Source: Rickettsiales bacterium
GTDB lineage: Bacteria > Pseudomonadota > Alphaproteobacteria > Rickettsiales > CANDYO01
Direction of reading: 5' to 3'
Length of the DNA stretch: 64,000 bases
Assembly (NCBI GenBank): GCA_049653745.1
Contig: JBASGW010000031.1
Span: forward strand, 38,048 to 102,047
Shown here: positions 57,825 through 60,406 of the stretch, in pieces
Layout: each line of letters starts with the position of its first letter
How positions within the stretch are numbered: position 1 is the stretch's first letter
Notes under the pieces: generated by a model
Seen by the model: only the letters and a program-made list of their open reading frames with translations
Database searches by the model: none
What the model was told of the DNA's origin: nothing
Made by a program: the position numbers and the translations under genes

Positions 57825-59078
57825 TTAAGGAAGATTCCAGTAATAATATTTTTTAAAATTACTAGCACCTTCAGTCCAGCTACCGCAAAACATATCAGCT
57901 CCAACTATTCTGTAGTGATTTCTATTTTTAAGGTTATAGAAAATATTTTCATGCTGCGCACTAACTCTGGCCAGATCATTTTTTTGTCCTTTAATAATCT
58001 CGGGCTTGAGAATAAATTGATTTAGTAATGACTCTAAATTGCTATTTTTATCTTGAATAAATTCTTTAGAAATATTACTAAGATCGCAGGTTTCATTTTT
58101 ATATCTTATAAAGCTAACATTAAAAATCATCCATGGCGGCATAATTATATCATTATTTCCTTCAATATTATTCTTTTTAAAATAAGAAATTGAAATTAAA
58201 GGTGGGCCATTAAAGTATAGATTGTCAGAAATTTTACAAGGATATTTAATGTAATTAGGAGTGCTAGAATCAAGAATATTAAAATGATAATTTCTATAAC
58301 TTCTGGTCATAGCTTCGTTCAATATTGGGTGATTAGGTTTTGCTGCAAGAAAAGCATTTCCATAATAAGCGTTTTCAGACCAATGTTCACGGGCTCCAAT
58401 AAAATCAAAATTTTTCATCAAACTTAAAAGATAGCTTGGATCATAAATTTCATAATCCATATCACTATAAAGACCACCAAATTTCTGTAGTAAGATTAAA
58501 CGAAAAAGGTCCGAGGCTTGAGCTAGATATGCTTTTAGATCTGCTCCTTTGTCAATTAAATCTAATAATACAGGATACATAGGATGATCTTTTAATTCAG
58601 ACAGGTCTCGAAGCTTCACTCCTTTGATAGCTTTGATTTCATCGGTAATTAAATCATTTTGATTAACCCAAATATTATGCTCCCATTCATATCCTAAGTT
58701 ATTCAAATTAGTGTAATTAACCTTCATATTTTCTAGATAATAATCGCTCAAAGTAACGGTCTTTTTTGATGAAGCAAAAAAAATCTTATGAGTGATCGTG
58801 GGAATTTTAGAAGTTTTTTCAGAAGTGTTTTTAAGATTATCTAGTTTATCTAAAGACTCATTTATAGTTTTCTGATTCTGGGAGATGTAGTCAAGGCCCT
58901 CTTGAGCAAAAACATCATAAAAATCTATGTCAGAATTATAGCATTTTTTTAAAATATGGTATTTTACTAACTTAGAGTAATATTTCTGTTCAGAAAAATA
59001 CTTAAAAAAATTTTTATATTTTATAAAGAGTAAAGCAAGTAGTACACAAATTATAATTAGAATTATCTTTCTTTTCAC
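57825..59078 (-). CDS. Membrane-anchored DXD glycosyltransferase, GT32 / clostridial-toxin / Lgt-like (paralog 2)
   Basis: 417 aa with N-terminal anchor IILIIICVLLALLFI. IPTITHKIFF, HNIWVN, QASDLFRLILLQKFGGLYSDMDYEIYDP, AAKPNHPI and C-terminal VGADMFCGSW. Collinear with 21714-23033 and 59093-60406. Confidence 0.65.
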   Translation of the reverse strand: MKRKIILIIICVLLALLFIKYKNFFKYFSEQKYYSKLVKYHILKKCYNSDIDFYDVFAQEGLDYISQNQKTINESLDKLDNLKNTSEKTSKIPTITHKIFFASSKKTVTLSDYYLENMKVNYTNLNNLGYEWEHNIWVNQNDLITDEIKAIKGVKLRDLSELKDHPMYPVLLDLIDKGADLKAYLAQASDLFRLILLQKFGGLYSDMDYEIYDPSYLLSLMKNFDFIGAREHWSENAYYGNAFLAAKPNHPILNEAMTRSYRNYHFNILDSSTPNYIKYPCKISDNLYFNGPPLISISYFKKNNIEGNNDIIMPPWMIFNVSFIRYKNETCDLSNISKEFIQDKNSNLESLLNQFILKPEIIKGQKNDLARVSAQHENIFYNLKNRNHYRIVGADMFCGSWTEGASNFKKYYYWNLP

Positions 59079-59092
59079 TCTAGCTCTCTAAC

Positions 59093-60406
59093 TTACCAGT
59101 TTAAATAATATTTCTTCCTAAAAACTTTTCCACCAAATGTCCAGCTGCCGCAGAACATGTCTGCTCCAATAACTGGATATTGTTTTCTATCTTTAAGATT
59201 ATAATAAATATTTTGTTCATCATCATTATAGTGAAATTTATTACCATCTTTGTCAGTTAATACATAATATTTATTCCAATCTTGCATGGTAATATTATCT
59301 ACATATGCTGAGAGTAGTTGGTCTAAATCAGAGTTATTCTTAGCAAAATCTTTTTTACTGATAGCTGTATAGTCGCATTCTTGTTTTTTAACATCAGTTA
59401 AAGATTGGTTGTTTTTCATGCGAGCAAAATTTAAATTAAATATCATCCATGGTGGTAAAATAACGTCGTCATTTCCTTCAATATTATTTTTACTGAAATA
59501 AGATATAGTCATTAAAGGAGGGCCACTAAAATATAATTTATCATATTGATTGCAAGGATATCTTAAATATAGGGGCGCTGAAGAGTCGTTTATATCAACT
59601 ACATAATATTTAAAACTTCTTGCTAAGGCATCGTTAATTATAGGGTGATTAGGTTTTGCTGCAAAAAAAGCATTGCCGTAATAACTATATTTATTAGGAA
59701 TCTCTCTTGCTGCAAAATAGTCAAATTTTTGGATTAATGAAAATAAAGCCTCCGGATTATAAATCTCATAATCCATGTCACTATAAATGCCACCAAATTT
59801 TTGTACCGCCATTAAGCGCAAAAGATCTGCTGCTTCTGCAAAATAAGGTCTTTTTAAATTTCCTTTAGTTAGCAGGTCACTTAAATTAACATATGAGGGG
59901 TGATCTTTAAACTCTTGCACATGCCTTATCTTAACATTTTTGATATTTTTTATTTCATCAGGAAATAATGATAAATTATTAGTCCAAATATTATGTTGCC
60001 AGTCATTGTTTATTGAGTTTAAACTATGATAGTAAGATTTTAAGACTTCATGATAAAAATCATTCAAAGCTATTGGTGATAAATCAGAAGTGAAATATAT
60101 TTTATGAGTAACTGTAGGTATTTTAGGTGCTGTTGAAATTGGAATATCTTTATCTTGAAGCTTGGCTAAACTAGAATTCACTACCTCTTTATTTTTTTTC
60201 TCATAATCGAAGCCCTCTTGTTGAAAAATCTCAAGCATATCAATGCTAGCGCTATAGCAATATTTCAGAACTCCTGTTTTAATAAGGCTATTGTAAACTA
60301 AGTGCTTAGTAATATATCCATTAACTTTTAAAACTCTTCCTATGACTAAAATTAGAAGCAAAGAAATTAGAATAATAATAGTTTTTTTTGTTAGTTTAAA
60401 TTTCAT
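59093..60406 (-). CDS. Membrane-anchored DXD glycosyltransferase, GT32 / clostridial-toxin / Lgt-like (paralog 3)
   Basis: 437 aa with N-terminal anchor TIIILISLLLILVI. IPTVTHKIYF, HNIWTN, EAADLLRLMAVQKFGGIYSDMDYEIYNP, AAKPNHPI and IGADMFCGSW. It lies 14 nt upstream of paralog 2. Confidence 0.65.
   Translation of the reverse strand: MKFKLTKKTIIILISLLLILVIGRVLKVNGYITKHLVYNSLIKTGVLKYCYSASIDMLEIFQQEGFDYEKKNKEVVNSSLAKLQDKDIPISTAPKIPTVTHKIYFTSDLSPIALNDFYHEVLKSYYHSLNSINNDWQHNIWTNNLSLFPDEIKNIKNVKIRHVQEFKDHPSYVNLSDLLTKGNLKRPYFAEAADLLRLMAVQKFGGIYSDMDYEIYNPEALFSLIQKFDYFAAREIPNKYSYYGNAFFAAKPNHPIINDALARSFKYYVVDINDSSAPLYLRYPCNQYDKLYFSGPPLMTISYFSKNNIEGNDDVILPPWMIFNLNFARMKNNQSLTDVKKQECDYTAISKKDFAKNNSDLDQLLSAYVDNITMQDWNKYYVLTDKDGNKFHYNDDEQNIYYNLKDRKQYPVIGADMFCGSWTFGGKVFRKKYYLNW

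Follow-up and report, generated by a model that had tools for sequence, protein, structure and literature searches.

What do the products of two adjacent glycosyltransferase-like genes of an uncultured Rickettsiales bacterium modify, the envelope of the bacterium or components of its host? The genes, here called p3 and p2, lie in tandem on the minus strand of a 64,000-nucleotide (nt) stretch of contig JBASGW010000031.1 (positions 38,048 to 102,047; hereafter, the window), and a third copy, p1, lies in the same window (Table 1). An earlier sequence-only reading had described them as Och1/toxin-like DXD glycosyltransferases expanded to three copies in this genome. Based on profile searches, structure prediction and comparison with related genomes, we place the pair in a known enzyme superfamily, within a branch that is old, restricted in lineage and uncharacterised. 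Tentatively, and with somewhat less than even confidence, we propose that the two proteins are inner-membrane DXD enzymes that act in sequence on a glycoconjugate of the bacterium itself.

All three proteins matched PF04488 (Gly_transf_sug, the GT32-type DXD family) above its cut-off of 23 bits, with scores of 33.6 for p2, 45.1 for p3 and 29.4 for p1, and precomputed annotation assigns the same domain to almost every one of the 115 homologs described below. The TcdA/TcdB-type profile PF12919 aligned with only ~63 residues around the DXD motif; its scores were 20.0 and 22.1 bits for the pair, below the cut-off of 23.6, and 26.1 bits for p1, above it. TcdA/TcdB-type membership of the pair was therefore rejected. 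An NCBIfam search of the proteins gave no match, and the Pfam scan revealed no extra domains in the three paralogs.

When a profile of the three sequences was compared with the PDB using HMMER, YGT (6rtg), YeGT (8ovs) and PaTox (4mix) were recovered at E ~1e-5 over the ASDxLR...DXD region. Modelled by AlphaFold2 from 51 homologs, p3 has a GT-A core (predicted local distance difference test [pLDDT] 90.9, predicted template-modelling score 0.89), preceded by a helix at residues 7-25 and a floppy linker at residues 27-33 that leads into the compact domain. Among the Foldseek matches in the PDB, the first was PaTox-G (4mix; E 9e-11, template-modelling [TM] score 0.35 query-normalised and 0.53 target-normalised), followed by YeGT, SetA, YGT and TcdB, the toxins overall ranging from E 9e-11 to 1e-4; fungal Och1 (9n3s) ranked 15th, with E 2e-5, TM 0.32/0.37 and 13-16% identity. 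Giant-virus and phage 'DXD' GT32-like enzymes were found among predicted viral structures (BFVD) at E ~1e-9. Every significant Foldseek match was a GT-A DXD transferase, and the PDB contains few non-toxin GT32 structures. Because the giant-virus and phage enzymes score nearly as well, the likeness to toxins is, judging from the model, that of the GT32-like GT-A core generally.

In a set of 51 family members whose mean identity is 41%, residues H101, W136, H138 and W141, D194 and R197, the GGxYxDxD motif, H254-P255, D416 and W422 do not vary, and R234 and C419 are also invariant or nearly so. More widely, GGxYxDxD and [AS]DxxR are kept in 159-167 of ~170 related domains, and DXD alone in 161-167. 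The role of the WIG motif, whose tryptophan stacks on uracil in toxins, has been described, and PaTox has been classed in the retaining family GT32 (PMC11152714). Since every catalytic motif is kept, all three copies should be active. By profile and predicted fold, p1, p2 and p3 belong to the GT32-like (PF04488) superfamily as DXD GT-A glycosyltransferases, within a branch specific to Rickettsiales; by analogy with GT32, they would be expected to have a retaining chemistry.

Within the window, p2 and p3 are collinear at 47-48% identity (tblastn E 4e-123), and p1 is collinear with either of them at 42-43% (E 1e-97 to 1e-102), similarities that in the alignments are far above chance; tblastn detected no further family copies or pseudogene fragments in the 64 kb. 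The greatest divergence follows the catalytic core. There, p3 is longer than p2, its surplus of 20 amino acids (aa) including two separate insertions of nine (NQSLTDVKK) and eight (DNITMQDW) residues within a generally variable stretch, residues ~330-410. The distance between the PxWM and GADM motifs is 92-114 residues across the p3 ortholog clade versus a median of 68 in the remaining family. Because it is common to this whole clade, the longer stretch is old and not particular to this genome.

Much of the sequence-only reading agrees with these results. Both profile and structure searches back the similarity that it saw in the DXD region; its specific toxin label was not supported, given that phage and giant-virus enzymes match about equally well and that PF12919 is sub-threshold for the pair. 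The collinearity that it proposed between the two genes and with the open reading frame (ORF) at 21714-23033 was borne out by pairwise identities of 42-48%. The motifs that it listed, IPT[IV]THKI[FY]F, HNIW[VT]N, [AS]DL[FL]RL, GG[LI]YSDMDYE, NAF[LF]AAKPNHPI, PPWMIFN and [VI]GADMFCGSW, were all found in place, together with one N-terminal hydrophobic segment in each paralog, and the alignment confirms that the segment after the core differs most. It had also placed a single insertion of ~25 aa in p3, of which the extra residues are real and the single block is not. Its geometry was accurate, with two co-oriented genes of 417 and 437 aa, 14 nt apart, between a DUF1013 regulator-like gene and anmK on the same strand (matches to PF06242, TrcR, and PF03702); the co-orientation needs only the correction that the strand is the minus strand.

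The MnmG protein encoded in the window shares 78% identity with its counterpart in 'Rickettsiales bacterium NGIII-112018-120' and ~60% with those of Rickettsiaceae. A word-indexed search with the family yielded 115 homolog clusters from metagenome-assembled genomes (MAGs) of Rickettsiales, and a second word-indexed profile search added nothing beyond the first. When 185,579 species genomes were scanned for a sequence pattern, full-length relatives occurred only in uncultured Rickettsiales, in Ca. Arcanobacter lacustris and in one Midichloriaceae MAG; beyond those lineages, the scan returned only remote GT32 cores from many phyla. At E ≤ 1e-3, the exhaustive profile search collected 2426 proteins, of which 157 reached E ≤ 1e-30. 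A plasmid collection contained only one remote Rhizobium mannosyltransferase, the search of genome and metagenome contigs with p1 gave no match, and a full-text literature search found no publication on this family in Rickettsiales. A eukaryotic origin found no support, and a recent acquisition from eukaryotes was rejected, since the near relatives are all bacterial and the named ones are all Rickettsiales or Alphaproteobacteria MAGs or Ca. Arcanobacter.

In a neighbour-joining (NJ) tree, p1, p2 and p3 fall into three separate clades. The best relatives elsewhere are 72% (p1), 56% (p2) and 62% (p3) identical, compared with 42-48% among the paralogs of this genome, and the identities of orthologs in other contigs range over 53-62% for p3 and 52-56% for p2. 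A recent expansion in this genome was rejected because each copy is closer to relatives in other genomes than to its own paralogs; the tree and the best-hit identities show three old ortholog groups. The three copies, which the sequence-only reading had taken for an expansion here, thus have closer kin outside. The family size that it had suggested surveying is one to four genes per array in related genomes, and growth specific to this genome was not supported.

A p3-type gene stands next to a short-type, p2-like gene elsewhere too, in no fewer than five contigs or genomes (L002/L005, L003/L006, L085, L095, L096 and L098), with the p3-type gene first in OZ245841.1 (a 1.55-Mb chromosome), JAOARE01, CAZJZY01 and the Logan/ENA contigs L095, L096 and L098. 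The arrays hold 1-4 divergent paralogs amid housekeeping genes, separated by gaps of 0-30 nt or overlapping, and the equivalents of p3 and p2 in relatives abut or overlap. In one distant relative (L098), the glycosyltransferase (GT) order GT440-GT422-AnmK preserves the GT-GT-anmK arrangement, the second GT gene overlapping anmK. Other traces of synteny are UvrD/His_Phos genes near the arrays of L085 and L086, a TrcR gene ~2 kb from the four-gene array of L086, and the p1 neighbourhood, which is kept around the p1 ortholog P0127 (L097). In four loci, 1-3 anchored PF13524 (Glyco_trans_1_2) genes lie directly upstream of the arrays; the 64-kb window contains no homolog of this partner. About ten loci were examined for secretion genes adjoining arrays, and none was found. 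In L096, a type I secretion ATP-binding cassette (ABC) transporter and an AprE/HlyD-type adaptor (L096:1-2230) occur ~5 kb upstream of the PF13524 and GT32 array, with ctaA and an aminotransferase gene in between, a proximity that is probably coincidental.

p3 and p2 are probably co-transcribed, because the scan of the spacer region gave no terminator-like site between them; the counts of the promoter/terminator scan were not above those of shuffled sequence, hence they carry no information on operon structure. The listed ORF of p1 begins with MYFLMNPQ. Since its 72%-identical ortholog P0127 begins with MNPQLKK, the true start of p1 is probably the second methionine (Met5), which would give a protein of 435 aa.

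Selection was examined on orthologs, as synonymous divergence (dS) is saturated among p1, p2 and p3 at 42-48% identity. Ortholog ratios of non-synonymous to synonymous divergence (dN/dS) of 0.14-0.16 indicate purifying selection on the family, and at ~0.15 there is no overall sign of positive selection. Compared with L098, amino acid identity is 61% for p3, 56% for p2 and 66% for anmK, with dN/dS ~0.15 and dS saturated in all three. The selection invoked by the sequence-only reading is therefore seen in purifying form, and not in connection with an expansion specific to this genome.

p1 is a sharp island of divergence. Against L097, the flanking genes are 89-94% identical in amino acids (dS 0.22-0.25, dN/dS 0.12-0.24), and p1 (L097:1580-2869) is 72% identical, with dS 1.16 and dN/dS 0.16. 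Nucleotide identity is 90-97% outside the gene, drops to 60-75% inside it, is lowest in the 3′ half and recovers directly after the stop codon; the catalytic core has a dN/dS of 0.08, the C-terminal part one of 0.2-0.3. This pattern suggests allele replacement by recombination or long-lived divergent alleles, and not relaxed constraint. In p2, 13 codons differ from those of the 99.25%-identical strain L001 (6 synonymous and 7 non-synonymous changes), and in anmK and ccmF none do. Phase-variable tracts were considered and found unconvincing: the only candidates in each gene are A/T runs of 7-8, and runs of this kind are frequent in the window (21 runs of at least 8 in 64 kb, at 30.6% GC).

By profile score, the closest out-group consists of giant proteins (P0120-P0139; 1200-3400 aa) of uncultured Rickettsiales and Alphaproteobacteria, in which 2-4 or more GT32-like domains are interleaved with ankyrin repeats, often with DUF3431. 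Each domain corresponds to profile positions ~47-328 and is followed by a short, separate G-A-D-x-x-C-G-x-W lid. One giant, P0139, is named an ankyrin/GT25 protein by the Joint Genome Institute, and a giant co-occurs with the GT pair in one MAG (L006, L009). The giants share with the window family the CY..QEG.DY start, the catalytic residues, the C50/C285 pair and the lid, but they have neither the anchor nor the ~80-residue post-core insertion, and their core identity to it is 29-37%.

One N-terminal hydrophobic segment is present in 109 of the 115 family members, with a Kyte-Doolittle 19-residue mean of 2.3-3.0, and the scan revealed no second such segment in the anchored members. The uncharged core of the anchor is short (median 15 residues), and lysine and arginine (K/R) occur on both sides, with a mean of 2.9 positive residues before it and a net charge of ~+2.7 in the 15 residues after it. 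Because the residues after the anchor are about equally positive, the positive-inside rule leaves the orientation ambiguous. Cysteines are almost limited to four positions, C50, C285, C344 and C419, each of them conserved. C50 and C285 are lost together: in the wider family, both are present in 50 domains, neither in 22, with 11 discordant cases (Fisher p 2e-11, no correction for phylogeny). In the p3 model, isolated beta-bridges at 47-48/51 and at 284 suggest that the two are probably adjacent, an arrangement compatible with a disulfide, a metal site or simple packing. A disulfide argument for a periplasmic location was discarded, as the ankyrin-fused relatives, which have no anchor, retain these cysteines as well.

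Under the proposed scheme, each enzyme would be an active transferase that depends on a metal through its DXD motif and is held in the bacterial inner membrane by its single N-terminal helix, and p3 and p2 would form a fixed, co-transcribed two-enzyme module. Each would move a hexose or an N-acetylhexosamine from a nucleotide sugar onto a different position of a membrane-proximal acceptor. The acceptor is the most conjectural element; candidates are an outer core of the lipooligosaccharide (LOS) type, a glycolipid or the glycan of a membrane or envelope glycoprotein. The variable segment after the core may set the acceptor specificity, and p1, like the extra array members and the anchored PF13524 protein elsewhere, could add further steps. 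A multi-step inner-membrane pathway is suggested by the anchor, the two-gene module, the divergent arrays with a second GT family, the stable chromosomal inheritance and the purifying selection, and stepwise building of an oligosaccharide by the fusion of several GT domains in relatives, one of them named GT25 and several with DUF3431. Rickettsia import host uridine diphosphate (UDP)-glucose, which has been suggested to feed envelope glycan synthesis (PMC5615194).

Several points weigh against this proposal. The best matches of the model among solved structures are host-modifying toxins and effectors, the nearest out-group consists of ankyrin-repeat giants, an architecture usually read as host-directed, and in the searched genomes the family is confined to host-associated Rickettsiales lineages. 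If the K/R-rich tail determined the ambiguous orientation, the catalytic domain would lie outside the cytoplasm, away from the nucleotide sugars of the bacterium. We know of no glycan described for these uncultured bacteria, nor did we find a paper on the family. No flippase, polymerase, ligase, ABC exporter or priming transferase was found beside the arrays in the loci examined, an objection that is weak because LOS-type pathways need none in cis.

An unlikely, although serious, alternative is that the enzymes reach the host and mono-glycosylate its proteins or membrane components in the manner of PaTox, YeGT, SetA, Lgt1 and TcdB, the paralogs having diversified to different targets. PaTox-G, YeGT, SetA, YGT and TcdB head the PDB matches in sequence and fold, PF12919 is above its cut-off for p1 and just below it for the pair, and the family is limited to uncultured Rickettsiales, Ca. 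Arcanobacter and a Midichloriaceae MAG, with ankyrin giants as its closest out-group, one of which shares a MAG with a pair; the p1 island (dS 1.16 versus 0.22 in the flanks) would also suit an arms-race locus. Nevertheless, the anchor is as hydrophobic as bona fide inner-membrane helices. Substrates of secretion systems with such a segment are expected to be captured by the signal recognition particle and retained in the bacterial membrane, and this hydrophobicity argues against delivery. The proteins are devoid of modules for translocation or receptor binding, and the arrays examined have no secretion genes beside them, although a cryptic signal may be present; a soluble effector with a delivery route was rejected on the single hydrophobic segment in 109/115 members, the lack of extra domains and the lack of adjacent secretion genes. 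The likeness in fold is generic (giant virus and phage E 1e-9, Och1 2e-5) and the TM scores are low, conserved arrays with a second glycosyltransferase family resemble a pathway more than a set of toxins, and dN/dS of ~0.15 bears no overall sign of positive selection. Still less probable is that these are Leloir enzymes of type II topology working outside the cytoplasm on host nucleotide sugars, in the periplasm, at the surface or, once delivered, in a host membrane as mimics of Golgi GT32 enzymes, and forming with the ankyrin giants a Rickettsiales-specific toolkit for building oligosaccharides on host or envelope targets. We give only slightly less credence to a type-II-like topology in which the N-terminus is cytoplasmic and the catalytic domain is periplasmic or outside, using on the envelope those host nucleotide sugars that have to pass the envelope of Rickettsia on import, or mimicking a Golgi type II GT32 enzyme. 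The short tail is rich in K/R, a positive-inside count limited by loop length would disregard the long C-terminal domain, the uncharged core of the anchor is short, C50 and C285 co-vary and appear adjacent in the model, the PF13524 partner has the same kind of anchor, and uptake of UDP-glucose by Rickettsia is documented (PMC5615194). The positive charges right after the anchor, however, oppose translocation, the cysteines need not be disulfides since anchor-less relatives also keep them, the nearest relatives are all bacterial and show no sign of eukaryotic origin, and the organism possesses chemotaxis genes. To our knowledge, no Leloir GT-A enzyme has been described from a bacterial periplasm.

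We consider it very unlikely that the target is a bacterial protein, such as flagellin, pilin or an outer-membrane or surface protein, instead of a lipid-linked glycan. With CheA, CheW and ChpT encoded in the window, the genome is that of a chemotactic and presumably flagellated organism, one array directly follows the gene of a methyl-accepting chemotaxis protein, and the ankyrin repeats of relatives could recruit a protein substrate, much as a TPR domain recruits the substrate in flagellin glycosyltransferases such as FlmG. The flagellin glycosyltransferases known to us are soluble and encoded in flagellar or sugar-biosynthesis loci; no flagellar gene lies beside the arrays examined, and a protein target would leave the membrane anchor unexplained. 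Decaying or catalytically dead duplicates have a practically negligible chance of being the explanation, although a small AT-rich genome is a setting of frequent paralog decay and each gene has A/T runs of 7-8: the frames are intact, the catalytic residues are all conserved, orthologs are kept across deeply diverged genomes and dN/dS is ~0.15, a conservation pattern that effectively refutes decay. The inner-membrane pathway on the bacterium's own glycoconjugate is the reading that we prefer, at the tentative level stated above.

Table 1. Features of the p3-p2 locus, of p1 and of related loci. Positions refer to the window unless a locus label is given.
Feature	Position	Strand	Description
p3 ('long' type)	59093..60406	-	437 aa, ATG start; predicted N-terminally anchored GT32-like (PF04488) glycosyltransferase
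p2 ('short' type)	57825..59078	-	417 aa, GTG start; predicted N-terminally anchored GT32-like glycosyltransferase
p1	21714..23033	-	439 aa as listed; third copy of the family, with a syntenically stable locus of its own ~35 kb from the pair
p2/p3 intergenic spacer	59079..59092	-	14 nt, coding strand GTTAGAGAGCTAGA, with GAGAG Shine-Dalgarno-like stretch
anmK (PF03702)	56674..57795	-	29 nt downstream of p2, same strand
trcR (PF06242, formerly DUF1013)	60454..61026	-	47 nt upstream of p3, same strand
p3 N-terminal membrane anchor (KKTIIILISLLLILVIGRV)	60332..60388	-	Kyte-Doolittle 19-residue mean 2.78; model helix 7-25; K/R on both flanks
p2 N-terminal membrane anchor (IILIIICVLLALLFI)	59022..59066	-	Kyte-Doolittle mean 2.47
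p3 DXD motif GGIYSDMDYE (D210, D212)	59765..59794	-	Putative metal/nucleotide-sugar motif, invariant in 51 members
p2 DXD motif GGLYSDMDYE	58449..58478	-	From sequence alignment
p3 AADLLR (D194, R197 invariant)	59816..59833	-	Aligns with ASDILR of YGT (6rtg) and YeGT (8ovs)
p3 WQHNIWTN (W136, H138, W141 invariant)	59978..60001	-	Aligns with the uracil-stacking 'WIG'-type tryptophan region of toxins (6rtg)
p3 IGADMFCGSW (D416, C419, W422)	59141..59170	-	C-terminal lid-like motif, invariant or near-invariant
p2 VGADMFCGSW	57876..57905	-	C-terminal lid-like motif
p3 variable post-core segment, residues 330-410	59177..59419	-	From alignment; pLDDT 69-79; clade-wide length difference; candidate acceptor-side region
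Anchored PF13524 genes	L083:5259-6461, L082:7435-8685, L004:2-2990, L096:4538-7017		Directly 5′ of GT32-like arrays
Giant ankyrin-repeat multi-GT proteins	L008:1402-6843, L009:2971-6798, L011:268-6828		Uncultured Rickettsiales/Alphaproteobacteria

Elsewhere in the window, genes for a ChpT-like histidine phosphotransferase, CheA and CheW (23737-27508) are present in this AT-rich Rickettsiales genome, which argues for a motile, possibly extracellular stage. A phosphoglucomutase/phosphomannomutase gene on the plus strand (20452-21708) converges on p1 with a gap of 5 nt and is kept in L097 (89% identical); a functional link of this gene to p1 was judged weak, the genes being convergent and the arrangement conserved only in the close relative. 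A sulfatase-family protein (23-1585) was read as EptA/LtaS-like and may be an envelope-modifying enzyme, and a Sel1-repeat protein is encoded at 8490-9269. Between the window and strain L001, 77 of the 110 differences fall inside 750 bp (49250-50000) and none in 50000-57750. The hypervariable stretch comprises an ankyrin-repeat ORF (49520-50401) and the end of ORF 48241-49527, and the ankyrin-repeat gene lies downstream of a ShlB/FhaC-type gene (46531-48237; two-partner-secretion-type outer-membrane transporter).

If the envelope reading is true, the arrays would define the surface glycan of poorly known, uncultured Rickettsiales and offer a genetic handle on between-strain variation of that glycan, with p1 as a sharp divergence island. 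If the enzymes are instead host-directed, the family and its ankyrin-fused relatives would represent a new class of glycosylating effectors that build glycans and not single sugars, and if they work outside the cytoplasm, they would be the first Leloir transferases to act there on host-supplied donors. On either reading, ~2400 related sequences are without a characterised member.

Among known systems, the tyrosine-N-acetylglucosamine transferase toxins PaTox-G, YeGT/YkGT and Afp18 share with the pair the GT-A fold, ASD-x-LR, DXD, the uracil-stacking tryptophan region and a C-terminal lid. However, identity is only 15-19% over ~260 aligned columns (TM 0.35, query-normalised), and these toxins have no N-terminal anchor, no CY..QEG.DY N-subdomain and no ~80-residue post-core insertion. 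They reach their target within large toxins or through injection machines and modify a tyrosine of Rho GTPases; no such delivery or acceptor was found for the pair. SetA, Lgt1 and LtpM of Legionella and the GT domains of large clostridial toxins (PF12919, GT44/GT88) have a comparable DXD GT-A core (Foldseek E 5e-8 to 1e-4), but they are soluble, secreted proteins with helical targeting subdomains, whereas the pair has neither a Dot/Icm-like context nor a delivery domain. Och1 and the Golgi type II GT32 enzymes (alpha-1,6-mannosyltransferase; A4GALT/A4GNT) come close in layout, with PF04488, a short basic tail, an anchor, a stem, a GT-A domain and few conserved cysteines; the match to Och1 is nevertheless weaker than those to toxins, and the near relatives of the pair are all bacterial. 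Och1 proper was rejected on the 15th rank of 9n3s, its 13-16% identity and the lack of eukaryotic near relatives. In Neisseria, the lgtABCDE locus is a tandem set of LOS glycosyltransferase genes of families GT8, GT25 and GT2, whose products have no N-terminal transmembrane anchor. The families thus differ from the GT32-like one described here, and we draw an analogy of organisation only, claiming no membership. As in the arrays of this study, co-oriented paralogous glycosyltransferase genes stand in tandem amid housekeeping genes, with no transporter or polymerase genes, their content differs from genome to genome, and the locus shows high allelic divergence.

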